Shown: positions 15,925-36,161 of the stretch, in pieces
How the letters are laid out: each line of letters opens with the position of its first letter
How positions within the stretch are numbered: the first letter of the stretch is position 1
Assembly: GCA_025594325.1 (NCBI GenBank)
Contig: JANHCV010000012.1
Coordinates: forward strand, 186,001 to 250,000
From: Blastocladiella emersonii ATCC 22665
Taxonomy: Eukaryota; Fungi; Blastocladiomycota
Length of the DNA stretch: 64,000 nucleotides
Direction: 5' to 3'
Notes under the pieces: model-generated
What the model was told of the DNA's origin: nothing
The model's input: only the letters and a program-made list of their open reading frames with translations
The model's database searches: none
Made by a program: the position numbers and the translations under genes

Positions 15925-16247
15925 ATGCTTACGCCAAAGAGCGGTTGTCCATGGATGGGCTGTCTTTCAGACGCTTGCGCTCGCCTTATGTTCACCCGTA
16001 TCACCAGCGCCAGCGCGTTCGCTCAGCCGCGCGTGGAAAATTCCTACTTGTCGCAAATAAAAAACAGAAAGCAAAAGGAGTACCTCGCCGGTTCGGGCGC
16101 CCTTGCACAATATGCATCTGGGTTTGAACTCTTAGCCATTATCCCATTTCACATCTTGTAAACAAAGCCGCCGCGCTCCACCTGAGAGCTATCAATCAAC
16201 TTGGATAAAGTTATTCAATGCCACACCTCCCAACAAGCTTGGCATGT

Positions 16248-17023
16248 TGCCGTATCCCTTAAGGGATACGGCATGGGCTGACCCACCACCACCTGGGCTG
16301 ACCAATTGCTTACCCCGAGCGGTCGGCGGCAGTCACTCAGGCTAACCACGTGATCGGCAATGCGTTACCCCGGGTAATATATTGAGATTTGCCAAATGCC
16401 CCAGGGGTACGGCACGGGGGCGGGTGGCGGGTGGGTCACGTGGATCACGTGCAGATGAACGGCGCGTGGGCACGGCTGCGAGTCAATCTGCGAGACAAGT
16501 CCAAGAGCAGATCCCTGAGCCCGTCCCTGACCAACCGCTCGGGCTGACCATTGCTTACCCCAAGCGGTTGGCGGCGGCCGGCGAGCGCAGCGAGACAAAG
16601 AGCAGCGCAGCTGCGGCTACCCACTGACAGAGTTCCATGGTCTGGTCCCTGACCTGACCCCCGAGCCTGTCCCTGACCTGACCCCCGAGCCCGTCCCTGA
16701 CCTGACCCCCGAGCCCATCCCCGACCACCTGCCGCAAGCGGCTGCTATGAAGCCACTCACCGTAAAGGTTCCACTTTCATGGCATATTACGACAGAGTAT
16801 ATATATACACTACCCTTTTTTGCCATGAAAGTGGAACTTTCAAAGACAAGAGGTCAGGGTACGGGGGGGGGGGGGAAGGTTGAGGACAAGGGAGCGTCTT
16901 AGCAGCATCAATGTATTGGGCAGGACAGGGGTCAGGGCAAGGGAGCGTCTTAGCAGGCAGCATCTTAGCAGGCAGGAAGGCAGCGTGGCAGGTCGTGGAG
17001 TGTCTTAGAGCTCGTTGTTGTCC
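16248..17023 (+). repeat. Left terminal inverted repeat (776 bp)
   Basis: Reverse complement of 31614-32359; differs by one 24-bp unit, G-run length and about 3 substitutions; begins with 26-bp palindrome TGCCGTATCCCTTAAGGGATACGGCA. Confidence 0.95.
16768..16837. promoter_or_regulatory. Origin-like inverted repeat in TIR: 17-bp arms around a 36-bp AT-rich spacer
   Basis: GTTCCACTTTCATGGCA (16768-16784) / TGCCATGAAAGTGGAAC (16821-16837), TATATATATA in spacer; mirrored in right TIR. Confidence 0.55.
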
Positions 17024-17492
17024 AGCTTGAGGACAAAGGTCGGGGACTGCTGCGGGGTGGTCGTCCAGCTTGCCCAGTGAGCCGCGTGGCTGGTGAACTG
17101 ACCAACCGCGTGGCTGGGGAATTAGCGCTATCCCTTGCCCTATAAGAACCCCCCACCGCCCCCCTCCCCAGACCTGCTCTCCACCACCCACAACTGAAGC
17201 CATGACACAGATTCACTGCCTCAAGCCCCTGCTGGAGCGCGTATAGGCCATCTTGCTGCAATGAGCCCAACACACTCACAGGACTTTTGGTATGGGTGTC
17301 ATGGCCAACGTTGTGGGTGGTCAAAGTGTACGGCACAAGACGTACAGGGCTATCTGCTGTGCACGGCAATAGACTCAGTTGCTTGTGTCAGGACATGGAG
17401 CGCTGCGCGGACTTGCTACCCGTGCAGTTGCACCATGGACCTTTCTTCCTTTATCCTGTTGGCGCTGTGTGGTCAATGAGCTTTGGTCTGTG

Positions 17493-17604
17493 CTGGTGTC
17501 CTGGTGTGTTGGTGTCCTGGTGTCCTGGTGTGTTGGTCTCCTGGTGTCCTGGTGTGTTGGTGTCCTGGTGTCCTGGTGTCCTGGTGTCCTGGTGTGCCGG
17601 TGTA
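17493..17604. repeat. 8-bp tandem repeat (CTGGTGTC / TTGGTGTC / CTGGTGTG) with 24-bp higher order, about 14 units
   Basis: Directly visible. Confidence 0.9.
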
Positions 17605-18294
17605 CTGTGTGGTCGATGAGTACTTGGCAATGATGCCCTGCTCCACACTGGAACTCTGATTAGTGGTTGGCCACCATGAAAGGAGACTCCAGTGTGGGGC
17701 AGTCTGGGGGCTGCCTGGCCAGCAGCTCCTGGACGGGGGCGGAGCACCCATTGCTACGTTATGTCATTACAGGGGGCTGTGGTCACGTGACCAGTTGCCA
17801 TGGACTGTTTGGTGGTGATGATGGAAGCGCGTTCAACGCACAAGTCTTTGACTTCTTCTCTGAGCCTTCAGTAACCCATGCGGGGCTGCATCCTTGACAT
17901 CACTCCCCTGCCTCAACCGCCGTGCGACCACTTGGAGCCACCTCGGTGGGTCTATGACAACCAGTTCCTGCTGGCCACGGTAGTTTACCCATGCTGTCAT
18001 CACACGTACACTTACCGCCGTAACGACTACTAAGTCTTTGGTCTTCAGTCTTCAAGGTAGCATTCACTGTTAACTTGAAGGGGCGCTTACTCAAAGCGCA
18101 CGGTGTACACAACTTTGACGCCGGGTGGACTTGTGTCTCGGATGGCCGTGTACTGGCTCAGGAACTTTGGCCCTGGTGTGGTTGGAGAAGGTGTATGGGG
18201 TGGTGACAAAGTGCAGCCAGTAGCCTGGTTCATGGTGTTGTCTCTTACTACGTTGTCGGGAAAATAAACACATTGCGCTGATGCGTTGCTTAGT

Positions 18295-18399
18295 CTACGG
18301 CGCGAATATCTTTGAGCGCGCTGGAGGTGTACCAATGATGGCAAGGTTGGCCACAAGGATGACCACGTTGGCTGCAAGGACAAGTGTCTCAAGGATCAT
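18295..18399 (-). CDS. Viral 34-aa hydrophobic peptide
   Basis: MILETLVLAANVVILVANLAIIGTPPARSKIFAP; preceded by the shared motif TTTTTTGCTGTGTACATGTAAG-ATG. Confidence 0.4.
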   Translation of the reverse strand: MILETLVLAANVVILVANLAIIGTPPARSKIFAP

Positions 18400-18429
18400 C
18401 TTACATGTACACAGCAAAAAAGTCGCAGC

Positions 18430-19176
18430 TCAGATGAACGCAAGCTCAATGTAGAAGGGTTGCCCCAGGAAGTCAACAGAGCGCAGGTTCTTGTCCACCA
18501 CGTCAACGTCAATGGAGTCTATCAGCTGTGGTGTGCCTCGCGCGTCAAAGCGAAAGTAGTCGCTCATGTGTGGACGGTGCTTGAACCAGCTCCCAAACGG
18601 CTGTGTGACATGGATGCTGCACAGCACACCATTGTCCTGCGGGTACGCCAAGAACATGTTGTCCGCAAGGCGGCTGCCCAGGTTGTGCGAGTACACATGC
18701 AGCAGGTTGATGGGAGAGATGTTCACCAGAGATGTCCCGTACTGGACCTTGCTGTAGCCGTAGCTGCTGACAAAGCCCATGTGTGTGTTCAGCGCAGCGG
18801 CCCCTGTCCCAACAGTGAAGTCGCAGGTGTCATTGGCAATGCGCATCTTCTGTGTGGTGGAGTCAACCTGCACATCCCATGTGCCCTGCCACAGAAGACT
18901 TGACGGCGCGTTGTTGAGCAGGCTCTTGAGCGTTGACATGAACGTCTCAACTGTGTAGTTGCCGTCAGGGACAGTGATGGTCCCTGGGAAGGTCACACTG
19001 CCACGGCTCTGTGTCAGGTACACCTTGTTGGCCTTGGAGTTGACCGTGTGCCAGCTGTTGCAGAGGTATGCTGAGTTGACCTTGATGCCGCTCACAGACA
19101 CGGCCCGCGGGAGGTACAGCACACCGTTCTTGAGGTCGCGGCTGCAGATGGTCAGTGTCTTGTAGGAGCCAGTCAT
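18430..19176 (-). CDS. Minor capsid (penton-like) protein
   Basis: ITVPDGNYT, NISPINLLHVYS and IDVDVVDKNLRSVDFLGQPFYIELAF are typical of Polinton/PLV minor capsid proteins; located downstream of MCP. Confidence 0.8.
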   Translation of the reverse strand: MTGSYKTLTICSRDLKNGVLYLPRAVSVSGIKVNSAYLCNSWHTVNSKANKVYLTQSRGSVTFPGTITVPDGNYTVETFMSTLKSLLNNAPSSLLWQGTWDVQVDSTTQKMRIANDTCDFTVGTGAAALNTHMGFVSSYGYSKVQYGTSLVNISPINLLHVYSHNLGSRLADNMFLAYPQDNGVLCSIHVTQPFGSWFKHRPHMSDYFRFDARGTPQLIDSIDVDVVDKNLRSVDFLGQPFYIELAFI

Positions 19177-19197
19177 TTAAGTAAGGCTTAGAAGATA

Positions 19198-19464
19198 TTA
19201 TTGCACTGCCGTGCCTGTGTCGTTGTCGTCTGTCTCAAAGATCTCACTTGTTGGCCGGTTGTACCATGTGTGGATGTCCTGGGCCAGGTCAGCGCCCTTG
19301 GACACAAGCTGTGCCACAGACGACACGGCAGGGTTGTGCGAGCGCTCAAAGAACTTGGACACGGTCTTGACTCCCTTGAGCACGGTGGGGAGATGCTTGT
19401 TCACAAAGCCGCCTACCTGGCCGAGCACATTGCTGAAGTTGGTCCACAGGTTCCTGAAGATCAT
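19198..19464 (-). CDS. 88-aa viral protein with N-terminal amphipathic helix
   Basis: MIFRNLWTNFSNVLGQVGGFVNKHL; between MCP and minor capsid; shared upstream motif. Confidence 0.6.
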   Translation of the reverse strand: MIFRNLWTNFSNVLGQVGGFVNKHLPTVLKGVKTVSKFFERSHNPAVSSVAQLVSKGADLAQDIHTWYNRPTSEIFETDDNDTGTAVQ

Positions 19465-19503
19465 TGCGTTTAACTGTACGCAAGAAAAGAATGCACGCGG
19501 GGC

Positions 19504-20724
19504 TTACTTGTAGAGGTTGACCTTGCCGGTTGGGAGGAACTTGTACACAATGTCAACACCAACAAAGGCGTCAACACGCTGGTTTGGGACAGTGTTTGAG
19601 GTGAGGATGATCTGCATGTCCACGGCCTGGCTCTTGCAAGACTTGTCGCCGCTGACAATGGTACGGGATGACTCAAGGTTGCGGCCAATGCAGAAGGTCC
19701 CCTCAGCTGGCGCATTGTACTTGTCCACTGACATGCCTGCACCAATGACATGGCCATGGAAGGCGTTGGACAGCTCTACAAAGGCCTCTGAAGCGTAGTT
19801 GTCACAGCGGACAGGCTTCTGGGGGAAGAGACGGCCACTAACGCTGAACTGGTACGTTGCAATGGTCTTGGCACGGAGGAACAAGTCCTTGGCATTGTCA
19901 TTGAGCACTGCGTTGTTGCGGAACGACACCAGCACGTCCTTTTGTGACGCACTGCGGTCAGAGACGTTGAGCGTAGAGTTGGGCACCGAGTAGTTGAGGA
20001 AGTGGTGGTTGTACGTTGTGCCGTAGAGCTTGAGACCCTGGTTCTTGAAGGCAGCGTCCATGACAGCGATCTGCTGGTCATTGAGCTTGATCAGGTCAGA
20101 CACAATGCACACGTCCTTGACACTGTAGCTTGGGATGGCATTGTTCTTGACCACACAGGCATCTGCACCAGGAGCCAGGGTGAACTCGATGCGGATACCA
20201 CCAAGGTACTTCATGGGCAGATGCTTCTGGTTGGACAGCAGTGCAGACTTGATGGGCAGCATGTACCGGTGAAGTCCAGATGACACAGCAAAGCGGTCAG
20301 CCCCAGTGGCAAAGTAACCCTGGGCCATGCCAAGGCATGAGTCCTTGAGGTGCTGCGGGACAGTCACGTCAGCCTCAATGCGCTGACGCAGGTTGTAGTA
20401 GGGAAGCTCTTCCAGCAGGGCTCCACCCGCGCTGTAGACTTGCACACGGTCAATGATGCTGAAGATGCCATCACAGAAGGCGACGTTGGCATCTGCAGTC
20501 TTGGCACTGAACTGCAGGAACGTGCAGTGGGTGTCCATCATGTCATTGTGCGGGGGCAGGAGGACACTGATAGTGTTGCCAGGTGCAAACTTGGGGCCGC
20601 CCTGTGCAGTGAACTGGACAGTCTGGCGCTCGGCATACACAGACTCCTTGGGCAGGTTAAACGTCATCTCTGGCGGCAGAGTCTTTGACAGGACCTGGGA
20701 GAACTGGGCATTGGTGGAAGACAT
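19504..20724 (-). CDS. Major capsid protein (double jelly-roll type, PLV-like)
   Basis: 406 aa, beta-rich; FAPGNTISVLLP, SIIDRVQVYS..LEEL..YN, HLPMKYLGGIRIEFTLA; adjacent to ATPase and penton. Confidence 0.8.
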   Translation of the reverse strand: MSSTNAQFSQVLSKTLPPEMTFNLPKESVYAERQTVQFTAQGGPKFAPGNTISVLLPPHNDMMDTHCTFLQFSAKTADANVAFCDGIFSIIDRVQVYSAGGALLEELPYYNLRQRIEADVTVPQHLKDSCLGMAQGYFATGADRFAVSSGLHRYMLPIKSALLSNQKHLPMKYLGGIRIEFTLAPGADACVVKNNAIPSYSVKDVCIVSDLIKLNDQQIAVMDAAFKNQGLKLYGTTYNHHFLNYSVPNSTLNVSDRSASQKDVLVSFRNNAVLNDNAKDLFLRAKTIATYQFSVSGRLFPQKPVRCDNYASEAFVELSNAFHGHVIGAGMSVDKYNAPAEGTFCIGRNLESSRTIVSGDKSCKSQAVDMQIILTSNTVPNQRVDAFVGVDIVYKFLPTGKVNLYK

Positions 20725-20767
20725 GGCGTGTGTTACTGAAGCACAAGAAAAAAAGTCGCTGCGTTGC

Positions 20768-21568
20768 TTAGTCCTTGATGATCCACTCGCTGAAGCTGTC
20801 TACCAGCCTGTACTTGGGACTGTTCTGGTTGTTGACACCAAGGAAGCGTCGCTTGGTGTTGCCCTCTGAGCGGGTGTCAAAGAGCTGTTCAATGATCACC
20901 TCAAACTCCTTGAGCAAGAACTGCGACCCGATCTCCTTGTGCAGTGTCTTGACCTCTGTCTTGTTGTAGATGGGGTACACAACGCTGTAGCTGCAGTTGA
21001 TGCGCAGTGTCTTGGGCAGAGCACACCAGCGCTGCACGCCAATGATGCAGCTGATCTTGAGGTGTTGCGAGTTGCACAGGAAGTTGGTCAGCGTCTTGTG
21101 GGACAGCAGCTTGAGCCCCAGCACGTCGTCAATGATCAGCAGCTGGTCCTGCAGTGCCTTCTTGCCCTGGTCTTCAAAGGTCTTGGTCAGGTCTTTGTGC
21201 ATCTTGAGCAGCGTGGGGATGAACAGCTCTGGGTCCGTGACAATGCACGATGGCTTCACCTTGAGCCGGTTTGGGTTGTGCTCCTGTGGATCAAGTACAT
21301 TGTGCTGCTTCTTGGGTGGTCGCAGGATCGCCTGTGAGGCAATGTACTTGTACTTGTTGTCAGCATGGAAGGTGGGGTTGAAGACCCAGATGTTGTCAAA
21401 GCATCCCTTGTAGAACTGCGGGAAGCACACAAGGTTGGCGATCAGTGTTGACTTGCCCTGACCCTTGGCGCCAATGACGTTCATGGTGAAGGGGTGCTTG
21501 GGGATGGGCAAAGGCTGGTTGTCGTCGTTCCTGGTGAAGCTGTTGTCAATGGCCACAATGTCGTACAT
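20768..21568 (-). CDS. A32/FtsK-like genome packaging ATPase
   Basis: Walker A GAKGQGKS, Walker B LLIIDD, LRINC arginine-finger region; likely start MYDIV at 21568. Confidence 0.9.
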   Translation of the reverse strand: MYDIVAIDNSFTRNDDNQPLPIPKHPFTMNVIGAKGQGKSTLIANLVCFPQFYKGCFDNIWVFNPTFHADNKYKYIASQAILRPPKKQHNVLDPQEHNPNRLKVKPSCIVTDPELFIPTLLKMHKDLTKTFEDQGKKALQDQLLIIDDVLGLKLLSHKTLTNFLCNSQHLKISCIIGVQRWCALPKTLRINCSYSVVYPIYNKTEVKTLHKEIGSQFLLKEFEVIIEQLFDTRSEGNTKRRFLGVNNQNSPKYRLVDSFSEWIIKD

Positions 21569-21593
21569 CTTACTGTACCCCAAGACAAAAGGT

Positions 21594-21794
21594 TCACGCC
21601 CAGCCAAGGTCAGTGACAATGCCACTGCGCTTGGGGACTTCGCGCACTTGCTTGACTGGTCGCTCAGGGAGCTTCTGGTGACGCTTGATCTGGGGTGCTG
21701 TCAGGCCACTGCCGGCCAACGTCTTCTCTGTGAACAGCTTCACGTCCAGGGGCTTCTTGTAGCCCAGTTGCTTGAGGATCTGTTCGAGTAACAT
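21594..21794 (-). CDS. 66-aa basic viral protein
   Basis: K/R-rich ORF with shared upstream motif GTAGTAGTAAG. Confidence 0.45.
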   Translation of the reverse strand: MLLEQILKQLGYKKPLDVKLFTEKTLAGSGLTAPQIKRHQKLPERPVKQVREVPKRSGIVTDLGWA

Positions 21795-21848
21795 CTCTGT
21801 CTTCTTACTACTACCCTCGGAATTGTTCTTGGGCGCGTCTGCAAGCTG

Positions 21849-23312
21849 TCAGATGAGCTGCTCCAGGTTGCTGGTGTCCAGGACCTGTGGCTGTGCTGGC
21901 GGCTGCATCGTGTCCAGCTTGCTGCCCAGGTCCTGGAGTGTCTTGTTCACAGCAGCATTGGGCTCTGTCTGTCCCTGGATGGCGCTCTGGACACCTGTTG
22001 CAAGCTGGCCAATGAGTCCCTGCTGGTTGGTCAGGGCAGTTGACATGCCGCTTGCAATCTCAGACACCAGTGCACGGTTCCCTGCATCAATCTGTCGCAC
22101 AAAGGCGTTGCGCTCTGCACGCAGTGTGTCCACAATGTTAGCTGCAAGGTTGGCAAAGGTCTCAAGTGCCAGTCCTTGGGCGTTCTTGGACTGCTCAATC
22201 AGGGCCATGTATGCCTGGTACTGCATGACCTGACTGTTTGTGAACTGGCCAGCAATGACGTCCAGCGCAGCCATCACGTTGGGGTCGCTGTTGTACTGCA
22301 CCATGATCTGTGTACGCAGGTCATTGTTCTGCTGGTAGTAGTTCTGCTCGTACTGCGTGATGTACTGCCGCATGTTGTAGTTCTGCGTGTTGTCCTGCTG
22401 GAAGCTGCTGTACACGTATTGATTGAACTGCTGAAAGTTCTGGACAATGTCGACCTCCATGTCGTCTGTTGTGGTCAGTGCCCGCTCTGGGTTGTAGACC
22501 TGGATGTCCTTGGAGCTTTCAATCATCTGAGACTCGTTCATGGTGGGATGTACGTGTGTGTCATTGTACACAGAGCCGCGCTGTGGAAGGTCCTGTCCGT
22601 AGCTGGGAGGGACAACAACCAGGTTGCATGTGCCATTGTCGAGCTGGGGTGGAAGGTCATTGCCGCCGTCGTTGTCATTCTGGATCAAGTAACGTCCAGG
22701 GATCATGCCAGCGTACTCTGGGATGTCCTGGCCAACGTAGTCACCAGCGTCCACAGGGTACTCTTCAGGGACAACTGGGCAGACAGGTACAGGCAAGAGA
22801 TGGTCTGGCACACGCTGCCCTGCTGTCTCCAGCATCTCAGCAAGTTCGTCCAAGGTGTCCTGTGGCCTCTGTGAGCCTATGCCAGAGTCTTGTGTGCTTG
22901 GGACGTCTGGTGTGTCTGCGCCTGTGTCAGAGTCTGGCGTGCCTTCCTGTGCAACAGGAACACGTTGGATGCCACTGCTAACGCTTGTGCTTGCTTGCTT
23001 GATGGTGTCATAGACGTGCTGCATGACGCTCTCTGAGTCTTGCCCCATGATCTCTCCATTGTGTCTCAGGAACAGCATCCCTGATTGCTTGCCCTCAAAG
23101 TCGTCTGCATAGCTCTCTGGTGTGACAGCGTAGTCAAAGGCAAGGATGTACGGGACCCACACAGTGAGGAACTCCTTGGCTGTGGGGAAAGTGTACGTGC
23201 GTCCATCAATGGTGGCCTTGATCCTCTGGCCAGGCATGCGCTCTGCAGTGATACAACTGTTTGTCTTGGCTGCAACGTCTTCCAGTTGCTTGGTGATGGG
23301 TCTTTGTGTCAT
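21849..23312 (-). CDS. 487-aa viral protein of unknown function (Q/N/Y-rich middle, helical C-terminus)
   Basis: Intact ORF from MTQRP; CACCATG context and shared upstream motif. Confidence 0.7.
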   Translation of the reverse strand: MTQRPITKQLEDVAAKTNSCITAERMPGQRIKATIDGRTYTFPTAKEFLTVWVPYILAFDYAVTPESYADDFEGKQSGMLFLRHNGEIMGQDSESVMQHVYDTIKQASTSVSSGIQRVPVAQEGTPDSDTGADTPDVPSTQDSGIGSQRPQDTLDELAEMLETAGQRVPDHLLPVPVCPVVPEEYPVDAGDYVGQDIPEYAGMIPGRYLIQNDNDGGNDLPPQLDNGTCNLVVVPPSYGQDLPQRGSVYNDTHVHPTMNESQMIESSKDIQVYNPERALTTTDDMEVDIVQNFQQFNQYVYSSFQQDNTQNYNMRQYITQYEQNYYQQNNDLRTQIMVQYNSDPNVMAALDVIAGQFTNSQVMQYQAYMALIEQSKNAQGLALETFANLAANIVDTLRAERNAFVRQIDAGNRALVSEIASGMSTALTNQQGLIGQLATGVQSAIQGQTEPNAAVNKTLQDLGSKLDTMQPPAQPQVLDTSNLEQLI

Positions 23313-23350
23313 GGTGGTTACTGTATGAAGCAAAAATAAACCCCAGGCAA

Positions 23351-23494
23351 GGTACACTTTGCACCTGTTTGTGGTACACTTTGTACCGTCAAGGGTACAC
23401 TTTGCACCTGTCTGTGGTACACTTTGTACCGTCAAGGGTACACTTTGTACCTGTCTGTGGTACACTTTGTACCATCAAGGGTACACTTTGTACG
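23351..23494. repeat. Array of seven 15-bp imperfect palindromes GGTACA-CTT-TG(T/C)ACC in a 43-bp period
   Basis: Copies start at 23351, 23373, 23394, 23416, 23437, 23459, 23480. Confidence 0.95.
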
Positions 23495-23728
23495 TTGTGC
23501 ATTGCGCTTGGCATTGAGTGCCTTGTAGATGCGGATCTTGACGCGCTCTGCCCGTGCTGCCTCACTGTCAACGTGGACAAAGCGACTGGCCTTGCAGTCC
23601 CTCTTCTGTAGCCACTTGGCCTTGTTGTCGTCGCTCTTGTTGTACCAGTTGGATGGCACAGGGAAGGTCCCTGCAAGGTGTTCACGCCACTCATCAAGGG
23701 ACATGTCCTGGTACTCTGAGCAATTCAT
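23432..23728 (-). CDS. Possible small viral ORF (98 aa)
   Basis: MNCSEYQDMSLDEWREHL..; start lies only 19 bp from the divergent fibre start and its 3' end overlaps the repeat array. Confidence 0.35.
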   Translation of the reverse strand: MNCSEYQDMSLDEWREHLAGTFPVPSNWYNKSDDNKAKWLQKRDCKASRFVHVDSEAARAERVKIRIYKALNAKRNAQRTKCTLDGTKCTTDRYKVYP

Positions 23729-23747
23729 TTCTTGCACTAAGTTAAAC

Positions 23748-25688
23748 ATGGTCAAGAATATATTCAACGTGTCTACCAACGTGTCACCAACAGTGTCTGC
23801 CACAGGTGTCTCAGATGTGTCCAAGGCATATGTTGATGCTGCCATCAGTGCTGTCTATGCCACAGTTGGTGCACCTGTCGCTGGGCCTGGACTCAGCGTG
23901 TCAGGGACAACTGTCTCTGCCAAGGTCGATGACCAGACACTGGGTGTTGGTCCAAGCGGTCTCTATGTCAAGTCAATCAGTACGGCCCAGCTCCTGCCAG
24001 CCAGCGTCACTGCAGACAAGGTTGTGAGTGTCACAGCTGCACAGGTCACAGGTAAGCTTGTTGATGCACAGCTGGACACTGTGTCAGCATCCAAGGTCAC
24101 TGGTGTGCTCAGTGCGTCCAACCTTCCAGCGCTTGGGACAACGTCCATTGCAGATGGCTCTGTGACAGACGCCAAGGTTGCCTCAGTGTCTGGGTCCAAG
24201 CTGGTTCCGGGGACTGTCAACACAGCAGCTCTTGCAGACACCTCCGTGACAGACGCCAAGGTTGTCTCAGTGTCTGGGTCCAAGCTGGTTGCAGGAAGTG
24301 TCTCAACACCTGCTCTTGCAGACGCCTCAGTGACAGACGCCAAGGTTGCCTCAGTGTCCAGGTCCAAGCTGGTTCCAGGGACTGTCAGCACAGCAGCACT
24401 TGCAGACACCGCAATAACAGATGTCAAGGTTGCCTCAGTGTCCGGGTCCAAGCTGGTTCCAGGGACTGTCAGCACAGCTGCCCTTGCAGACGCTGCTGTC
24501 ACCAACGCCAAGCTGGCCACTGGTATAGACGGTGCAAAGCTCAACGTGTCATCTGTGGGAACAGCACACCTTGCAGCAGGGTCAGTCACTGATGCCAAGG
24601 TCACAGATGTGTCTGCCACCAAGCTGACAGGGACGCTTGATCCTGCACGCATTGCAGACAGTTCACTGACCAATGCCAAGCTGGCCACTGGGATAGACGC
24701 TGCCAAGTTGTCTGGGACCATTGACCTTGCACGACTGCCTGACGTGTCCAGCAAGGTGTCAAGTGTCAACGGAGCCATTGTCACTGGGACGCTCCCCCAG
24801 TCCACCCTTGGACTTGGCAGTGTCTTTACCTTTGCCAGTACTGTGGACAGCACATCAACGTCCACTGGGGCAGTCACTGTGGCAGGTGGCCTTGGTGTGG
24901 GCAAGCAGCTCACTGTGCCAAACGTCCTTGTCCGGAACACAGTCAGTGCAAATGTGGTCTTTGACTCTGCTGCCAACACACTCACATACATTGACTTCAA
25001 GCAAGCAGGTGTCCTGAAGAGCAACCTGGCATGCACTGCACTGGGCACCATTGAGATCGCTTCAGCAACCAATGGTGGTGTGTCCTTGGCTGCAGGTGGC
25101 GGCAATGTGGTTGTGGGCTCGGCGACGCTTGGCACAGAAAAGCTCTGTGTCAATGGCACTGGTCGCTTCACAGGGCAGCTCACCCTTGACCTCGCTCCAG
25201 TGGCAGGCACCGACGCAGCAAACAAGGCGTACGTTGACTTGCGGTCTGGCATGACCTGGTACGTTGCTCAGGCTGAGCACCGCTCTACAAACAGAGTGAC
25301 CACGGGCGGCAAGATCATTGGCGGCACAGCATTGACGGGCCCGGCCACCTTTGCGTTCCAGTCCACGGCGGGCGCGTTCACATCTGTGATCAATGGATGC
25401 GTCAAACCCCCTGTCAGTGGCTACTACCTCGTCCATGCAAAGGGCTACTACGCAAACGGCACGCTCCCTGGATCCCACACTGTGAACTTTGCGCTGTACA
25501 ACATGACGGACATGATTGCAGTGTCGCTTGTCACCGGGTGCCGCGCTGAAGGCAACGTCCAGTTCCTTCAGTTCTTGAGCATCGAGTACCTTGACGCGGC
25601 CAAGAGCTACTCTTTCATCTGGATCCCGTTGGTCGCAGTTGCCAACAACTGCCAGGTCATCATTCAAAGCCACTGGACCCTGCTCTAA
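23748..25688 (+). CDS. Fibre/spike-like virion protein, 646 aa
   Basis: 28-aa (84-bp) repeats VTDAKVASVSGSKLVPGTVSTAALADTS, KAYVD motifs, STSTGAVTVAGGLGVG, C-terminal beta-rich head (KPPVSGYYLV). Confidence 0.75.
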   Translation: MVKNIFNVSTNVSPTVSATGVSDVSKAYVDAAISAVYATVGAPVAGPGLSVSGTTVSAKVDDQTLGVGPSGLYVKSISTAQLLPASVTADKVVSVTAAQVTGKLVDAQLDTVSASKVTGVLSASNLPALGTTSIADGSVTDAKVASVSGSKLVPGTVNTAALADTSVTDAKVVSVSGSKLVAGSVSTPALADASVTDAKVASVSRSKLVPGTVSTAALADTAITDVKVASVSGSKLVPGTVSTAALADAAVTNAKLATGIDGAKLNVSSVGTAHLAAGSVTDAKVTDVSATKLTGTLDPARIADSSLTNAKLATGIDAAKLSGTIDLARLPDVSSKVSSVNGAIVTGTLPQSTLGLGSVFTFASTVDSTSTSTGAVTVAGGLGVGKQLTVPNVLVRNTVSANVVFDSAANTLTYIDFKQAGVLKSNLACTALGTIEIASATNGGVSLAAGGGNVVVGSATLGTEKLCVNGTGRFTGQLTLDLAPVAGTDAANKAYVDLRSGMTWYVAQAEHRSTNRVTTGGKIIGGTALTGPATFAFQSTAGAFTSVINGCVKPPVSGYYLVHAKGYYANGTLPGSHTVNFALYNMTDMIAVSLVTGCRAEGNVQFLQFLSIEYLDAAKSYSFIWIPLVAVANNCQVIIQSHWTLL

Positions 25689-25714
25689 AGCCCACGGTCC
25701 CACTTTTCTTGGAC

Positions 25715-26797
25715 TCAGACTGGGACGCGCCTGACCCAGGTCGAGGGCTCCCTTGGCGTGACCGGGGTGCGCGCAGCAGGGAGCCTTGGAAAACTTGGAC
25801 CTACGCGCTGCCTTGTTGGCGGGTCCTGGGTCGCTGTGACTGGCTGGACGTTGCTGCGTGGATAGAAGCCCTTCAAGTCACCAACCTTGTACAACGGGTT
25901 GCTCACACCAGAGCCCTTGCGGACAGCTGTGACTTGGTGCACTGTGGACGTCCATACTGGCTTTCCCTTTGCTTCCATGGCTGTCTTGTACGGCTCACGG
26001 ACACGTACCTGTGTTCCAACTTTGAGCAGCGCACTGAGTGGGTCACCCTCTGGCTTGCCCTTGGCAGCACGGATGGCCTTGAGTGTGTCCTTGGCAGCGT
26101 CTTGCGGCATGTCATGGAAGTCATTGGGCGCCTTGCCTGTAGCTCTGGACTTGCTGCTGTTGATCACGGACTCTATGGTCTCAAGGTACTTTGGCCAGTT
26201 GTTGTTGCCTTCAATGGACAGCCACGGTGTCAGCATCCTGCGAATGGTCCCGTTCATACGCTCAATGACACCTTGACCGTACGGCACACCTGCCTTGCCT
26301 TTGATGTGCTTTGCGCCTGTCCCCGCTTCAATGCCATTGAACTCTGTGCCATTGTCTGTCTGGATGGTTGCTGGTGTCAGGTTATGCTTGGAGACAACGT
26401 TGTCCCATGCCTGCCGTGTCAGGTCCTTGGTCTTGACTGGACGCAGGAACACGCGTTGAGTTGCCAAGTCTACACAGGTAAGAATGTACCTGAACCCGTT
26501 GAAGGTACCTTTCTTGCCCATGTCTATGAGGTCCAGCTGCCAGTTGCAACTGGGGCTCGTTGAGTTGATGCTTTGGATGTCGCGCCGCTTCTGTGGTGCA
26601 CGCTTGTACTGCTGCCACACAGACTGCTCATTGAGCCACCTCCCTAGCTGTGCGCAGTACACGCGGTCACCAGTGTTCTCTCTGGACACAATGTCAAAGA
26701 GCCAACAGATACCAACACCTACATGGCCGCGCTTGTAGTACAGGTCACTGAGGAACGCTTGCTGTGCGTCTGTGAGTGGTGCTTCGTGTGGATACAT
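25715..26797 (-). CDS. Retroviral-type (rve) DDE integrase, Polinton-like
   Basis: WQLDLIDM (D), IQTDNGTEF (D), GVIERMNGTIR (E), C-terminal KVGTQVRV SH3-like segment. Confidence 0.92.
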   Translation of the reverse strand: MYPHEAPLTDAQQAFLSDLYYKRGHVGVGICWLFDIVSRENTGDRVYCAQLGRWLNEQSVWQQYKRAPQKRRDIQSINSTSPSCNWQLDLIDMGKKGTFNGFRYILTCVDLATQRVFLRPVKTKDLTRQAWDNVVSKHNLTPATIQTDNGTEFNGIEAGTGAKHIKGKAGVPYGQGVIERMNGTIRRMLTPWLSIEGNNNWPKYLETIESVINSSKSRATGKAPNDFHDMPQDAAKDTLKAIRAAKGKPEGDPLSALLKVGTQVRVREPYKTAMEAKGKPVWTSTVHQVTAVRKGSGVSNPLYKVGDLKGFYPRSNVQPVTATQDPPTRQRVGPSFPRLPAARTPVTPREPSTWVRRVPV

Positions 26798-26820
26798 TAC
26801 ATTACGGCAACAAAACAAGG

Positions 26821-27981
26821 TCAGACAAGGTAGTGGGCCACGGCGACAGGTACGCTGTGACCCATCTCAGCAGCACGCTTGGCCACGGCCTTGTACGCGT
26901 CCTTGTTCTCACTGGTGCTGATGCGGCGGATCTGCTGGACACCGCACCCCTTGAAGCCAACGTCCTGTGCTGCCAGCGCAATGGTCTTGGACCAGTCTTT
27001 GCGGACCTTGGCGTTGACCTGAGCATCACAGACGTTGTCCAGGCTGTGGTTGTAGAAGACCAGGTCATGGCCGTCAGCAAGACGCTTGGCAATGACGCGC
27101 TCAAGGGCAGCAGCAACCTTGGGGTCAGCAATGACATGCGAGAACCCATAGCCACGGCCATCTGTCTTGACGCACACAGGGCCGGCCAGCGTCTTGGTCT
27201 CGGGGTTGTAGCTTGGGTACTTGTCACTGGGCTTGGTGGTCAGGAACGCAAGGTCACTGCAGGTTGCACAGACGACTTGGAGGTACAGACGCAGAGCACG
27301 CATTGTGCCAGACACCTGGTATGTGTCCCAGTTCTCAGCAGCAACAACAGCAGCCAGCAAGTCTTCATGGCTTGGGAGTGCACCAGTCTCCACAGCCTTG
27401 CGCGCGTCAAGGTGAGCTTCAGCGTCCTGCTTCTTGGTCTGCGTGTACTGTGCAGCAAGGTCGTCATTGCCATTCCACTTGCAGTACTTGGCCAGCGCCT
27501 TGAGCGTCTCAACCTGCAGACCCTGTGCCTTGTCTGTGCCCTTGGTTGCACGGTACGTCTCCACAGCCTTTGTCACACTGTTGACGTCCTCAATGGCCAG
27601 CCCCAACTTGCAGAACGCAGTCAGCACGCGACACAGCTTGGACTGGTCATCGGCACTGAGCTGGGACACTTGGCCGTACTTGTTCACCACAGGCTCGCTG
27701 GCACGCGCCTTGATGGATTCCTCAGTCATCTGCGCGTACTTGACCTGGGGATCAGTGTCCATGGGCTCGCCAGACTCATTGGTGGGGGTGTGATTGGAAC
27801 TGTGATTGCAGTCACGTGACACTGCAGCCAGCGCAGCGAGGCTGGTCTCGACTCCCTTGAGCCGCTCATCAAAGGACGCCAGCAGCGGCTTGATACCATC
27901 AAGCACTTGGTGCACTACGTCGGCGGCAACGTGCTGAGCAACAACCTTGGACACCTGGGACACAAGCGCTTTGAGAGACAT
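26821..27981 (-). CDS. Tyrosine recombinase (catalytic Arg apparently replaced by Cys)
   Basis: LYL..ATCSDL (PLRNDY-like box I), VKTDGRGYG (K), QQIRR, AAEMGHSVPVAVAHY (box II). Confidence 0.8.
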   Translation of the reverse strand: MSLKALVSQVSKVVAQHVAADVVHQVLDGIKPLLASFDERLKGVETSLAALAAVSRDCNHSSNHTPTNESGEPMDTDPQVKYAQMTEESIKARASEPVVNKYGQVSQLSADDQSKLCRVLTAFCKLGLAIEDVNSVTKAVETYRATKGTDKAQGLQVETLKALAKYCKWNGNDDLAAQYTQTKKQDAEAHLDARKAVETGALPSHEDLLAAVVAAENWDTYQVSGTMRALRLYLQVVCATCSDLAFLTTKPSDKYPSYNPETKTLAGPVCVKTDGRGYGFSHVIADPKVAAALERVIAKRLADGHDLVFYNHSLDNVCDAQVNAKVRKDWSKTIALAAQDVGFKGCGVQQIRRISTSENKDAYKAVAKRAAEMGHSVPVAVAHYLV

Positions 27982-28069
27982 CTTACCGTAGCCCCAGAAA
28001 AGAAGGCGTCACTGCTCAAGTGCGTTTGGCGGTATTGTTAAATATATTGTGCGTCGATAGTAGGACACC

Positions 28070-31000
28070 ATGTACTACGACAGTGACAGCGACAGCCATG
28101 TCCCCAACCCCCTTGATGAGTTCCTGCTTAGCATTGCTTACTGCAGAGGCAAGGTGGTTGACTTTGACAAGGTGAAGGCCTTGACCATGGACGCTGCACG
28201 CAAGGCATGGCTGGGCAATGACGAGTCTCTGGCAGAGGCCATGAAGACGCTGCGTGTTGTTATTGCCCGTCTTGCAGTGTTGCAGCACGTCCAAGGGGCG
28301 CCTGTGAAGACACAGCAGCTGTACGACAGCACGTCAATGAAGCGGCTCCTGCCAGACATCCCCTTGAAGAAGGGTGCTCCCTCAATTGACTTTGACCAGC
28401 TTGCACAGGACACGATGCACAGGACGGGACAAGGACACGATGCACAGGGCAGGCCAACCAGGACGGGACAACGACACAATGCACAGGACAGGCCAATGAC
28501 ACAATGCACAGGACAGGCCATGCCAACAAGGGCTCCCAGGGCACAGTCATTAACGCTAAATCCTGCGCGTTTAAACGCACCTGTCCTGTCACCCTTTCTG
28601 TTACCTCATCATAACAACATGGTCTGCAATCAGGTTCCCGGTAAACATGGCACTGCCTTTGGTCTCAAGTGGTTCCATGGCAAGGATGGTGGCAACAGCG
28701 ACATGGGCCCTCAGCGCACGCTCTTGTCCAAGCTGCAAGACAACAAGACGGTCATCAAGCGCCTTGTTGACAAGGGCGTCGACAACCACGGCCAACCCAA
28801 GGCGGCGCACTACTTTGCCAAGGTCAAGACAGCTGACCTGGCCGGGCTCCTTGACAAGAACCGCTGCATCCAGGAGATGGTCCACCCCAAGCGCCTGTCC
28901 AAAGTCTACTTTGACATTGACTGCCCGGGCAACCGCAAGGACGTGACCCTGGACGTCATCAAAAAGGTCATCCTGGCCCAGTTCCCCGGCGCCAACCTCC
29001 AGGTCTGTGGCTACAAGACGGACCTCAAAAAGGCGTGGCACATTGTCCTCAGCAACTACACGGCCACGCTCAAGGACATGCCGTTCCTGAAGCTGTTCTG
29101 CAGCCACCCCGACCATGTCAAGCTTGGCTTTGACTCCAGCGTGTACAGCAAGCACCGCTTCATGAAGTGCATCAACCAGTCCAAGCCCAAGAAGATGCCC
29201 GGCGTGTGGATCTTGGGTAACAAGGACCGCCTTCCAAGCACTTGATCCAGTGCGACTTTGACCACAACTGCGCGTCGGTCTTGGACCTGTCCTTTGAAGA
29301 GTTTGTGACTGCCAAGGCCAAGGAAGCGCGGACCAAGCGCCACGCGGGTCGCCTTTGCACATCCTTGAACTTGGGGATGTCAAGGTCGTGCAGATCGACC
29401 CCGACTTCTTCTACTACAACGCCACGCCACTTGAGATCCTCCACAACATCCCCATCAGCCCCGAGAACGCGTTCCACAACAACGTGACCTGGCGGATCAT
29501 GACATGGGCCATGCGCAAAGGGGTCACATTTGACCAGTTCTGGGCGTGGACGTCGCAGCAGGACAACTTGGCTCAGCGCATGCAAAAGTACTGGGGCCGA
29601 TGGAACGAGATTGCCAGCAACGACAACTACCAGGTGCTGGACACGTTTGTCAAGGCCATCTTCTACAAGCGGTTCCCAGCCGTGTTCAAGTCCAAGGCCA
29701 TGGCCAAGTTTGAGCAGTCGCTTGAGGTACCAGTGGACGTGACCAGCCCCAACTAGTTCCTGTCCTGCGACAACATTACCCTGGCCAAGTTCAACATGCT
29801 GGCCACGGGCATGGGCTCCAACAAGACGGCGCTGTGTGCGACTACATTGCCAAGTACCCAGACGCGTGAGTGGTCTGGATCACACCTTGCATCACCCTGG
29901 CCCACAACACCGAGGGTCGAGCCCGCAAACAGAAGCTTGGCTTTGTCAACTACTGCAGCATCAAGGACAAGAAGACACTGGGGGATCACAAGCGACTCAT
30001 TGTCTCGCCGTGCTCGCTGCACTACTTGACCGAGCCCTACAACATTGTTGTGGTGGACGAGTCCAAGACGGTCCTCAAGGTGTTCCAGGACGCCAAGTTG
30101 CACACAACCACCATTCGCAACAACCTCGAGGCCAACCTCAAGGCCTTCAAGACGCTGTGCGAGCACAAGGGCAGCAAGGGTATCTTCATGGACGAGTTTG
30201 TCACAAACCTGACCATGGACGTCCTCCGCTCCTTTACTGTCAAGCACAACATCAAGACCATACTCCATGGTAAGATCAAGGTGATCACGAACACGCTTGG
30301 CAAGAAGTTTGAGCCGCGCAAGATGAGCCTCATCACTGACGACAAGGATGAGGAGAAGTCCGCCAAAGACATCATGGAGAGCAACATCATTGCCGACCTC
30401 AAGGCCAACAAGAAGCTCTACCTCTTCATCCCACAACCATTCAAGAAGTCAACCAAGTGGTTGGTGCAGACCTTTGGCAAGTACCTCGAGCTGGTCTTTG
30501 CCAAGGAGAAGTGGAAGATTGGCAAGCAGATCAAGCTCTACCACGGCGACCGCCCCAACCACGAGGACAAGGAACTCATTGACCCTGACTCTGTGTGGTG
30601 TGGGGCAACGATACGGTCCGTATAGTCATCGCCAACCTCAAGATCACTGTGGGGGTCAACTTTTTGAAGCCATACGTCTTCCACAAGGTGTACGCGCGCT
30701 ACAAGTCCTGGGTCCCTGCCCACGACTTCTTCCAGGCAATCTACTGCGTGCGCTACCCCATTGACAACAAGATCGTGTTCATGATCAGCCATGGTTGCCG
30801 CAGCGCGTACATGAACAAGTTACAGGTCATTGACTCGGACTTGGTTGGCAAACTTCACCGGGCTATTGTCAAGAACACAGATCTTGAGAACAAGATGGCC
30901 GCTGTGACCTTCTGCCTCAAGGTCTTTGACGCCTTCCGCAAGGTCGCCAACATTGTCATGGACGACTCCCCCGAGTACTACTACAAGGCGCACCCCGAGA

Positions 31001-31632
31001 TTAAGGATGTCATGACGTTGGGCTGGTCTTTTGAATGGGCAAACGTCCAGCTACCGTCCAAGGAGATCATGCGCGCCTACTGCAAAGGTACCATCAAGGA
31101 CCCAGACTGGACCATCTCCCTCTCTGTCCGCAAGGCCTTCTTCATCCGCAAGTTCAATGGTCTGAGCATGGACAACATGAAGATCATCTGGGACGACAAC
31201 GCGGAGAGCTTCATGGAGCGTATCCAGCACTTTTACACCAAGGACAAGGGCCACGTCCTGCAAAAGCTCCTGGAACACAACAACATGGACCTCTGCACGT
31301 CCAAGGAGTTCAACATCCAGGCCACCATCCCCGCCAAGTTTGAAGCAGACATCCATAAGTACTTCAAGAAGCTTGGGTATTACAAGTGTGACACAGCAAC
31401 AGTCCAAAACAGGCTTCTCAGCACTTACTTTAACAAGTGCCTTGCTGTGCCAGACAAGGACGAACCCTGGGTCTCAGTACGCGGCAAGAAGTACAGGAAC
31501 CTGAAGTGGACAGACAACATTCTGTACTTTGTCATGTACGAGACCTGGACCCCACCCCCAGCCAATCCGGCCCCGTTTGTCCTGGAGATGGACAAGGACG
31601 AGGACAACAACGAGGACAACAACGAGCTCTAA
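28070..31632 (+). pseudogene. PrimPol-type AEP primase + PriCT-like + UL9/OBP-like SF2 helicase; at least 4 frameshifts and 2 stops
   Basis: VYFDID, AWHIVL, GFDSSVYSKHRFMK (AEP, from Met 28619); TWRIM..FWAW..YWGRW; GMGSNKT and VVVDES helicase motifs; stops at 29754 and 29867. Confidence 0.85.
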
Positions 31633-32359
31633 GACACTCCACGACCTGCCACGCTGCCTTCCTGCCTGCTAAGACGCTGCCTGCTAAGACGCTCCCTTGC
31701 CCTGACCCCTGTCCTGCCCAATACATTGATGCTGCTAAGACGCTCCCTTGTCCTCAACCTTCCCCCCCGTACCCTGACCTCTTGTCTTTGAAAGTTCCAC
31801 TTTCATGGCAAAAAAGGGTAGTGTATATATATACTCTGTCGTAATATGCCATGAAAGTGGAACCTTTACGGTGAGTGGCTTCATAGCAGCCGCTTGCGGC
31901 AGGTGGTCGGGGATGGGCTCGGGGGTCAGGTCAGGGACGGGCTCGGGGGTCAGGTCAGGGACCAGACCATGGAACTCTGTCAGTGGGTAGCCGCAGCTGC
32001 GCTGCTCTTTGTCTCGCTGCGCTCGCCGGCCGCCGCCGACCGCTTGGGGTAAGCAATGGTCAGCCCGAGCGGTTGGTCAGGGACGGGCTCAGGGATCTGC
32101 TCTTGGACTTGTCTCGCAGATTGACTCGCAGCCGTGCCCACGCGCCGTTCATCTGCACGTGATCCACGTGACCCACCCGCCACCCGCCCCCGTGCCGTAC
32201 CCCTGGGGCATTTGGCAAATCTCAATATATTACCCGGAGTAACGCATTGCCGATCACGTGGTTAGCCTGAGTGACTGCCGCCGACCGCTCGGGGTAAGCA
32301 ATTGGTCAGCCCAGGTGGTGGTGGGTCAGCCCATGCCGTATCCCTTAAGGGATACGGCA
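31614..32359 (-). repeat. Right terminal inverted repeat (746 bp)
   Basis: Includes the last codons of the helicase ORF; ends in the 26-bp palindrome 32334-32359. Confidence 0.95.
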
Positions 32360-32631
32360 CATGTAGTCCAGCTCTCTCTCAATGAATTGAGAATGGTTCT
32401 GAAGCGGGTGGCGGCTGTTGATGCCGACAGAAGGAGGCAGGAGACAAGTAGTCAGGAATGTCTATTCCTGCCTTTTGCCCCAAACCCAAGACGGGGAGAG
32501 GGGAGAATGGATAAAAAAGCAGGGCGCGCCGCAGCGGGGTGCGGCGGCGCGGGAGCGAGGGATTGCGGGCGGCTCACGCGAGATCAGATGATTGATCACC
32601 ACGGTTGTGGCCGCATGAACGACACGCAACA

Positions 32632-34479: not shown

Positions 34480-35816
34480 CGGCCGGCGTGGTTGATGGCA
34501 ACAAGATGGGCACGGGCGTCGGTATTATACAGGCGCGACAGGATGTTGGGCAGCACGTTCAGGACGCCGGGGAGGTGCGTGACCAAGAACAAGAGGGAGA
34601 GCAGCGTGTCAAGCCAGTTTTTGAGGATGGGCGACAGGCGCTTCTGCGTGAACATGTGGGTGAGCGCCGCGTGGTCCGTGAACAACGCGAAACGGCGGCC
34701 GTGGAGGTAGTAGAAGAAGCGAGTGAGCGCGAAGACGATGCCGAGGAGCTCGCGCTTGGTGGCCAAGTAGTTCTGCTTGGCGGGCTGCAGAGAGCGAGAG
34801 GCAAACGAGATGTAGCGCGGGGACTTGCGGCTACCCTGGAACAGGACGGCGCCAAGACCGACGTTCGAGGCGTTGGTAGCGACGAAGAACGGCTTGGAGA
34901 AATCAGGCGGCGCGAGACACGGGGCGGCGGCGGCGGCGATGGCGGCCTTTAAGGCGAGGAACGCCTGCTCGCACTCGTCAGTCCACACGTTGCGGACGTC
35001 AAGGTTGATGCGCTTGAGGTTGCGCAGCGCGTCAAGCGGGTGCATGAGGACTGCGGCGAGCGGGATGTAGGCGCGCAGGTAGTTGACAAGGCTGAGGAAC
35101 TTCTGGACCTGGTTGCCGGACGTTGGACGCGGCCAGTTGCGGATCGAGACGACCTTGGCCTCGGCGGGCTGCACGCCCTCAGCCGAGACGACGTGGCCGA
35201 GCAGGTGCACGCGTGCGCAGTAGAAGAAGCACTTGGCGGGGTTGAGGCGGGGGTTCCACCGCGTGAGACGGTAGACGACGAGGACGAGGTGCTGCGTGTG
35301 CTCCTCGACCGAGGCCAAGAAGATGATGAGATTGTCAATGAAGACGCGCACGAACGGCATGTTGTGGAAGATGTTGGACATGACGGCCTGGAACTGCGCC
35401 GAGAGGGTCTTGATGCCAAACGGGCCGCGCGAAGACGACATCGGGCTGGATAGAGCTGGAATGATGTTGTCAAGGAACAGGTCTGCACGCACGGTCAGGA
35501 ACGCTGGGTAGCACCGAGAAGGCTCGCTGCGAATGGGCGTGCGGTTCGCCGCAGCCGAACGAGTGCGCGAAGACGACATCAGGCTGGATAGAGCCGGAAT
35601 GATGTCGTCAAGGAACAGGTCTGCACGCACGGTCAGGAACGCCGGATAGCACCAAGAAGGCTTGCTGCAAACGGGCGTGCGGTTCGCCGCAGCCAAACGA
35701 GCGCGCGAAGATGACATCGGGCTGGATAGAGCCGGAATGATGAGGTCAGAGATATTATTATTGTGAGCGACAAGCGCCACGTACAGGTCGCGGATGGACG
35801 CGCGTGCCCAGGTCAC
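34356..35816 (-). pseudogene. Partial reverse transcriptase/RNase H
   Basis: PFGIKT..AQFQ, FIDN (degenerate YxDD), LLGHVVS, NYLATKRELLGIV, FTDHAAL; N-terminal RT replaced by duplicated segments. Confidence 0.85.
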
Positions 35817-36161
35817 AAAAATGCGGGCGTGCCCAGCCAGTCGGGGTCGACCGCACCGGCGCTGTCGTGCTCACGGCGCGCACCAGAGCGGGCGGGGGCG
35901 GCGAAATGCGCGACGGGACCGAGGCGGCCGCGAAGGGGATCGTCGTGGGTGACGGTGGCAGCGCGGGCCGAGGTGGGGCCGAGGCGGGAGCCGACAATGA
36001 TGTGGTAGAACTTGTCGAGCAGGTGCGCGAACAGGCTGGTGGCAGACGCTGGCAGGAGGGCGAGGACACGGAGGTGGTGGGCGAGCAGGGGCTGGGAGCG
36101 GGGAATGCCGTCGACCGCGCGGGCAGGCGAGGAGATGAACTTGGAGCGGGAGCGCTCAAGG

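Follow-up and report, generated by a model that had tools for sequence, protein, structure and literature searches.

A 64,000-nt window of the Blastocladiella emersonii ATCC 22665 genome (Blastocladiomycota; contig JANHCV010000012.1, positions 186,001 to 250,000) contains, at positions 16248–32359, a real and well-bounded endogenous Polinton-like virus (PLV) of 16,112 bp. It belongs, in decayed form, to a Blastocladiella family, and this family is probably part of a Blastocladiales lineage. The window denotes this whole stretch throughout, and positions are counted from its first nucleotide. It is held here with considerable confidence that the window copy is one of a multicopy B. emersonii PLV family, retaining exact ends and an intact capsid gene alongside a broken replicase and a mutated recombinase, and that its own rve integrase likely carried out the insertion, which was likely followed by erosion through host CpG methylation. 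Of this, the borders, the genes present, the capsid protein's double-jelly-roll fold, the existence of a copy family, the lesions and the CpG bias of the changes are shown.

Borders and gene content

A preliminary description, made from the sequence alone, had placed the borders at these positions, with a CATGT target-site duplication (TSD), TG..CA ends and terminal inverted repeats (TIRs) of about 750 bp, and all of this is borne out (Table 1). The duplication spans 5 bp, with the sixth base differing between the two sides (GCATGT versus CATGTA), and the TIRs, at 776 and 746 bp, agree at 743 of 746 aligned bases, leaving 3 mismatches and two indels of 24 and 6 bp. Overlooked at that stage was that each end of the element is a perfect 26-bp palindrome, which within the window is confined to these two ends, 0 chance matches being expected. 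Each TIR also holds an AT-rich imperfect hairpin, which is a candidate origin, promoter or binding site of the UL9-like protein described below. The stretch following the left TIR (17024–18429) gives no consistent coding signal by codon score, and a 138-aa open reading frame (ORF) of the TIR, as well as antisense ORFs, were dropped as genes on the same score.

The passage from the left flank into the TIR is supported by short-read contigs from 3 of 4 runs (one sample), which match positions 15700–16276 with 0 differences; these reach 29 bases into the element, slightly below a 31-base bridging rule, and the flank is at single depth. No empty-site contig or branch at the left junction was seen among the short-read contigs, in an indirect test with queries holding one TIR each. 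The right junction is covered by reads, with no bridging contig among those listed. Read depth at the TIR end is approximately 30–60 times that of the flank, which agrees with the copy count given below but is itself no copy number.

With regard to the virion module, the 406-aa ORF proposed as the major capsid protein (MCP) had been singled out in advance for a test of its fold, which it passed. On the predicted structure (alignment of 108 MCP sequences; pLDDT 92.4, pTM 0.89), the protein is a double jelly roll of capsid type, matching the PBCV-1 capsid (Foldseek E 6e-18; VIA Z 27.9, rmsd 3.3, 353 aligned), with lower structural Z values for Sputnik (19.7) and mavirus (18.5). By sequence, the MCP gives chance matches only against the PDB, and no capsid family of Pfam matches it or any of 51 MCP homologues. 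The 248-aa ORF is supported as the penton: a profile built from penton candidates of environmental PLVs (n=5) matches it at E 1.2e-14 in a set of 298 ORFs, with an hhalign probability of 95.8, these references having themselves been inferred from motifs and from their position beside the MCP. Together with the Pfam match of the A32-type ATPase and the PHROG match of the fibre-like protein, these results uphold the virion module as first proposed. A 719-aa start for the fibre gene was rejected by codon score, and translation probably begins at 23748 (646 aa). Among the remaining frames, ORF88 is possibly a small virion protein, and ORF487, which has no match in Pfam, PHROGs or Atlas, probably ends at a premature stop. 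In the public gene models ORF88 and the penton are joined via predicted introns, as are the broken parts of the replicase; both are probably annotation artefacts. No cysteine protease was recognized by Pfam or by a profile of 4 virophage proteases, 2–3 ORFs being without assignment, and no RNA polymerase gene was found in the element.

The replicase appears to be a fusion of an archaeo-eukaryotic primase (AEP) with a UL9-type superfamily 2 (SF2) helicase. In other copies it measures 940–1006 aa and contains the UL9 origin-binding helicase domain PF02399, and the helicase matches herpesvirus origin-binding protein (E 9e-14). Assignment of the N-terminal part as an AEP is supported by its DxD and His motifs and by the published annotation, as PrimPol/helicase, of a related protein cluster with the same helicase match (PC_0360; PMC7805220). 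A start at 28070 was rejected by codon score, the true start lying at about 28619. The proposed presence of an AEP-helicase replicase is supported through the helicase domain and the AEP motifs, and so is the proposed absence of a DNA polymerase B of the protein-primed kind (pPolB): no Pfam match and no characteristic PolB motif occurs in 298 six-frame ORFs, and the coding space is accounted for.

Of the two integration enzymes first suggested, the rve integrase is recognizable by its D-D-E motifs and by PF00665 (E 3.5e-6, under the curated cut-off), as well as by its similarity to the integrases of Ty3 and PFV, with E values between 4e-5 and 4e-4. The tyrosine recombinase (YR) is a less firm call, which is not statistically strong: profile scores are non-significant, and the assignment rests on a motif alignment and a predicted Xer-like core-binding domain. 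The catalytic motifs (R-K-(H/R)xxR-H-Y) align across the family, with the first Arg absent from the window copy, and for the core-binding domain an Xer recombinase is the best structural match (Z 9.4, on a low-confidence model). Foldseek places Cre, TelA and lambda integrase at the top for the full model, at E 0.3 or worse; a protelomerase is conceivable, the motifs fitting the PLV/virophage type of YR better. YRs are not known to make target-site duplications of the kind seen here. In other copies, too, the two genes lie side by side, and a single contig of 631 bp covers both. Contig depth is lower over rve and YR (25700–27981) than over the replicase (28500–31500), and YR paralogues are 52–65 % identical between subfamilies versus 80–96 % for MCPs, which suggests module exchange among copies.

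Table 1. Features of the element and its surroundings, in window positions
Feature	Position	Strand	Remarks
Left TSD, CATGT	16243..16247		5-bp target-site duplication
Left TIR, 776 bp	16248..17023	+	743/746 aligned bases same as right TIR
Terminal palindromes, 26 bp, perfect	16248..16273, 32334-32359		fold as blunt hairpin; candidate self-priming end
AT-rich imperfect 76-bp hairpin in each TIR	16765..16840, mirror copy 31791-31866		z -7.95
8-bp tandem array	17465..17631		within non-coding stretch 17024-18429
Penton / minor capsid protein, 248 aa	18430..19176	-	profile match
ORF88, 88 aa	19198..19464	-	conserved in other copies
Double-jelly-roll MCP, 406 aa, intact	19504..20724	-	predicted fold and structure match
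A32-type packaging ATPase, 266 aa	20768..21568	-	PF04665 E 2.6e-11
ORF487, 487 aa	21591..23312	-	probably shortened by premature TGA
Small ORF, uncertain	23432..23845	-	possible; overlaps 43-bp tandem array
Fibre-like protein, ~646 aa, 28-residue repeats	23748..25688	+	PHROG tail-fibre E 4e-9; PF09327
Stand-alone rve (DDE) integrase, 360 aa	25715..26797	-	D-D-E motifs; no reverse transcriptase (RT) fusion
Tyrosine recombinase (YR)	26821..27981	-	motif alignment; Xer-like core-binding domain
AEP primase-polymerase + UL9-type SF2 helicase fusion	28619..31632	+	4 frameshifts, 2 stops
Right TIR, 746 bp	31614..32359	-	ends in same 26-bp palindrome as left end
Right TSD, CATGT	32360..32364		5-bp target-site duplication
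Ty3/chromovirus-like long terminal repeat (LTR) retrotransposon	32416-37784		224-bp LTRs 94% identical; rve, RT-RNaseH, weak chromodomain matches
Host SNF2-family helicase	59890-62466	-	

Copy family and relationships

The close homologues of the MCP (80–96 % identity), 7 of 7, are annotated proteins of B. emersonii ATCC 22665 itself. When grouped by locus tag, the MCP, penton, YR and replicase proteins form 25 clusters, spread over 12 contigs and including the window locus; two of these clusters may be one element, which gives 24–25 loci and a multicopy family that had gone unnoticed in the preliminary description. At least two markers are present in 22 of the 25 clusters. Being derived from annotated proteins, the count is a lower bound, with 15 of the 26 members of the largest MCP cluster listed. 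Conservation across the subfamilies is seen in the MCP and penton models. Of 13 other replicase models, 4 have no gaps and retain each of the 6 motifs checked, the other 9 having gaps or lost motifs.

As for class, the double-jelly-roll MCP, penton and A32-like ATPase are those of PLVs (Aquintoviricetes-type), and the element also has a genome within 14–40 kb, TIRs and an integration gene; the link to PLVs proper is suggested by the relatedness of its MCP to Spizellomyces-type proxies. Classical Polinton/Mavericks (Polintoviricetes) share the rve gene, but the element has no pPolB and a TSD of 5 rather than 6 bp, the latter being a weak criterion, as one paper gives 5–6 bp for these elements (PMC8547959). 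Against a profile of 4 virophage MCPs its capsid protein gives no match, which sets it apart from Virophaviricetes, and at 16.1 kb it is well below the 35–45 kb of Mriyaviruses (10.64898/2026.06.19.733378).

The suggested MCP phylogeny was built from 43 rows selected from 150 matches plus loci. Herein the element's MCP groups with nine environmental MCPs (about 24–37 % identity) in one clade (SH-aLRT 98), apart from ten Spizellomyces-type proxies, so that membership of the Spizellomyces punctatus group is not found on this marker; monophyly with the proxies is rejected by the approximately unbiased (AU) test (p 1.2e-17), for which a quick tree was used and the 10 motif-picked proxies stood in for the S. 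punctatus protein itself. The MCP is also apart from those of three PLVs sharing its replicase. For the replicase, the nearest outside sequences are from Allomyces javanicus and A. arbusculus, at 51 % and 49 % identity respectively in the AEP portion. The two contigs that bear them, around GGF32_006347 and GGF31_002599, measure 14.6 and 15.0 kb, and the Blastocladiella and Allomyces proteins form one long-branch clade (FastTree, local support 100 %). In size, these Allomyces contigs (P0185/P0186; 14,600 and 14,956 bp) come close to the roughly 14.6 kb that the element measures minus its TIRs, which suggests that they are complete elements in collapsed form. The proposal of a distinct lineage in zoosporic fungi hence stands as regards the replicase clade and the separate MCP clade. 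It does not stand on the marks of novelty originally given, since most PLVs are without pPolB and integrated PLVs have TSDs of 5–7 bp (PMC7805220).

Environmental loci fetched with the replicase (n=126, partial contigs with some duplicates) contain a virophage MCP in 24 cases, a related PLV MCP in 12 and no detected MCP in 90. Within the 12, YR occurs in 7, rve and protease are detected in none, and no terminal palindromes were seen at the ends of these partial contigs; rve occurs in 2 of the 90. In two loci (L095:4461-5594 and L111:6284-7918) the AEP-UL9 replicase is paired with rve, with a chromodomain in L095, against the reported AEP-YR pairing.

Every component of the element is already published singly, among them PolB-less PLVs in zoosporic fungi, 5-bp TSDs, AEP-SF2 replicases and terminal palindromes. 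PLVs have been reported in S. punctatus and Allomyces macrogynus (PMC7805220) and in many chytrid genomes, with chytrid PLV ATPases at two places among aquintoviruses (10.64898/2026.06.19.733378), and six Powellomyces MELD viruses mostly have non-PolB replicases (PMC8502044). AEP-SF2 fusions are described as a 'sizable minority', AEP going with YR and DDE with pPolB (10.64898/2026.10.13.758929). The pairing of rve with YR is known in virophages (PMC8547959, 10.64898/2026.07.28.741278); in another study it occurred in 12 elements out of 8,300, each time as a fusion to a retrotransposon (PMC12220804). Terminal palindromes, and a hairpin-priming model, have been put forward for palindrome-ended non-pPolB PLVs and virophages (10.64898/2026.07.28.741278). 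What is uncommon is the combination of stand-alone rve and YR, itself rare in PLVs, with an AEP-SF2 replicase and palindromic ends in the PLV of a culturable fungus. Further literature was drawn on in part (PMC10120064, PMC13533422, PMC9730499, PMC13297926, 10.1101/2025.04.19.649669). No report of a Blastocladiella PLV family was found in a literature search that did not extend to the supplements of two 2026 PLV preprints and a 2025 viral-region preprint, which may list the species; in the B. emersonii genome paper 'viral/virus' occurs in the references only.

Each of the nearest described systems shares only some of these features. The A. macrogynus PLV (Bellas & Sommaruga 2021, PMC7805220) is from the same fungal order and is integrated, with MCP, ATPase and DNA helicase; the available account runs to two sentences, without borders, integrases or copy family, and this PLV may or may not be of the same lineage. 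PLVs of the S. punctatus group (PMC7805220; SP67 profile, 10.64898/2026.06.19.733378) likewise have a zoosporic fungal host, and the element's MCP is detectably related to the motif-picked proxies (E 1e-9 to 1e-19), but theirs measure about 470–630 aa against 406 aa, and 52 % of that group have a chitinase, of which the element has none. The Powellomyces MELD viruses (Starrett et al. 2021, PMC8502044) resemble it in their mid-size linear dsDNA, fibre genes and non-PolB replicases, with S2H and YRec among the MELD genes of a figure legend; they differ in host phylum and are read-assembled rather than bounded insertions, this comparison being by description only. Halocafeteria PLVs of subtype 4 and virophages (10.64898/2026.07.28.741278) also have TIR-end palindromes beside TSDs, a non-pPolB replicase and rve, yet with 52-nt palindromes (virophage subtype 5), with rve+YR in virophages and not PLVs, and in a protist host. 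Mid-GC EMALE virophages of Cafeteria (PMC8547959) share rve+YR and TIRs, with TSDs of mostly 3–5 bp, but have a virophage-type MCP, where the element has a PLV-type MCP and no recognizable protease. Finally, environmental AEP-UL9 PLVs (L007, L050, L057, L093 and others; PC_0360 of PMC7805220) have related MCP, penton and replicase, often YR and no detected protease; they differ in replicase identity (23–36 %), in being AT-rich, in the lack of rve noted above and in their MCP subclades.

Proposed life cycle

In an active ancestor, the genome would be linear, and rve would attach its TG..CA ends to the DNA of the host, producing the 5-bp duplication. After excision, the 26-bp palindromes could fold into blunt hairpins that prime synthesis, replacing the terminal protein of pPolB elements, with the AEP-UL9 protein unwinding DNA and priming or extending. 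YR would probably resolve hairpin or concatemer junctions, or act as a second integrase, e.g. into a giant-virus genome. MCP, penton, fibre and A32 ATPase would build and fill an icosahedral particle; as no RNA polymerase gene was found, transcription would fall to the host nucleus or a co-infecting giant virus.

It is possible, although doubtful, that the family is instead a virophage-like parasite of fungal giant viruses (Mycodnaviridae), using rve to enter the host genome and YR to enter the giant virus, and waking only on co-infection. The rve+YR combination is the pairing of mid-GC EMALE virophages, in which YR is thought to act on giant-virus genomes; the closest replicases come from A. 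javanicus and A. arbusculus, species with Mycodnaviridae; virophage MCPs accompany the same replicase in the 24 environmental loci noted above; and several isolated PLVs need giant viruses. However, the literature available holds no report of a giant virus of B. emersonii, and one isolate among the PLVs was originally presented as a nuclear lytic virus. Rather unlikely is an intranuclear self-synthesizing transposon whose capsid genes are carried along without particles. The 24–25 loci, in subfamilies 80–96 % alike, fit intragenomic spread, and viral contigs yielded no close relative for the MCP, ATPase or rve, two environmental MCPs as queries likewise returning no locus; conversely, the MCP, penton and ATPase frames are open, MCP and penton are conserved across subfamilies, the capsid fold is predicted with high confidence, and nine environmental MCPs lie within the MCP clade.

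An extension of the favoured reading as a multicopy PLV family, to which we give only a small chance, is that a PLV lineage specific to Blastocladiales, possessing two stand-alone integrases and an AEP-UL9 replication primed from hairpins, would serve as a virophage-like defence against Mycodnaviridae, its intact copies being CpG-silenced yet wakeable. If so, a laboratory model would provide the first small dsDNA virus or virophage that can be isolated from a fungus; according to a 2023 abstract, dsDNA viruses infecting fungi were not known, a large survey of endogenous viral elements left out Fungi, and fungal PLVs receive only brief mention in the portions of the PLV literature consulted. 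The value of the family is that a fungal dsDNA virus or virophage could be tested on it in culture: its host is a model fungus with about 24 loci, some of them with gap-free replicase models, and the family has relatives in Allomyces, a genus whose giant viruses are latent and at times active. Whether fungal PLVs form particles, whether they parasitize fungal giant viruses and how ends are copied in non-PolB PLVs thereby become testable.

Decay of the window copy and its surroundings

The window copy is complete in outline, but it is not intact. The preliminary description had called it complete, which holds for its exact ends and gene set and fails for its replicase and recombinase, the pseudogenization having passed unnoticed. 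The replicase is interrupted by frameshifts at about 29232, 29380, 29827 and 30593 and by in-frame stops at 29754 and 29867. In YR, the predicted catalytic Arg241 is replaced by Cys (codon 27259–27261, a CpG site), where 6 of 6 other copies covering the column have Arg. ORF487 meets a TGA at 21849–21851, after which the same frame is open and coding-like for 84 further codons. MCP, penton and ATPase frames remain open. It would appear that this copy cannot replicate unaided, and that better-preserved siblings could supply the missing proteins.

The observed/expected CpG ratio is 0.59 in the element against 1.22–1.27 in the flanks, with TpG at 1.56, and the drop coincides with the borders. The TIR variants listed are all transitions (23 of 23), 17 of them at CpG, and at C/G sites 13 of 19 variants lie in CpG, versus 74 of 289 such sites (Fisher p 6e-5). 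For amino-acid variants, the rate per opportunity is 0.27 for CpG transitions, 0.04–0.08 for other C>T/G>A changes and 0.007 for transversions. The idea that this decay is virus-specific was rejected, as the neighbouring Ty3 element mutates likewise, with 29 of its 37 differences at CpG; the decay therefore looks like general repeat methylation, and erosion by host CpG methylation is likely. That the virus is much more deeply depleted suggests either that it has long resided in methylating hosts or that its CpG content is natively low. A giant virus in Allomyces has CpG methylation on part of its genome in one strain and none in another, Blastocladiomycota have been reviewed as 6mA-dominated, and no report of CpG deamination or methylation of endogenous PLVs was found in the literature; the decay would point to 5-methylcytosine silencing of repeats in this phylum. 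A host SNF2-family helicase of the window may be akin to HELLS/Lsh/DDM1, a repeat-methylation cofactor, and would then fit such decay.

Several points weigh against the reading of a methylation-eroded PLV. The AEP domain has no Pfam match, and YR scores are not significant (HMM E 0.18, hhalign probability 5, model pLDDT 46). The observed/expected ratio of the Ty3 element stays at 1.10, so low CpG could be partly native to the virus, and the protein-level count prefers the CpG route wherever possible. Gap-free replicase models of other copies may conceal lesions inside short predicted introns, and particle, excision and methylation steps are predictions from sequence. The lesions themselves are not confirmed in reads, several sites showing only the letters of other copies, and may include assembly errors.

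On this last point, it is quite improbable that the copy is actually intact and its frameshifts and stops are all assembly errors. At 29232, 29754, 29867 and 30593 (two runs), all contigs have another letter or indel and none the window allele; both stops, and 3 of 4 frameshifts among the indel rows listed, are sites where contigs from other copies differ. Contigs are, however, filtered and lose rare variants, the changes behind one stop and the YR substitution are transitions at CpG, which is the dominant kind in the family, 9 of 13 sibling replicase models are also damaged, and the flank matches read contigs without differences. Assembly error is also less likely because the published assembly is from HiFi reads with Illumina polishing. 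An assembly artefact, a contaminant or a classical Polinton minus its PolB can be dismissed as very improbable: GC is below that of the host (0.56 versus 0.60–0.67) and rve and TIRs are Polinton-like, but the TSD is exact, flank-to-TIR contigs occur in 3 runs, host genes stand on both sides, loci are many, there is no room or remnant for pPolB, and replicase and MCP group with PLVs.

The decayed element is located in a small repeat cluster. The Ty3 element starts 51 bp right of the right TSD and has internal duplications that differ mostly at CpG, and an RNase H-bearing remnant, probably of a non-LTR retrotransposon, lies about 0.7 kb to the left (14095–15567). Besides retroelements, the flanking genes encode ADA2, SNF2, AlkB-like and leucine-rich repeat (LRR) proteins; the last include three LRR_6 repeat genes (5363–6466, 12391–13431 and 49029–50483), perhaps an expanded host family.

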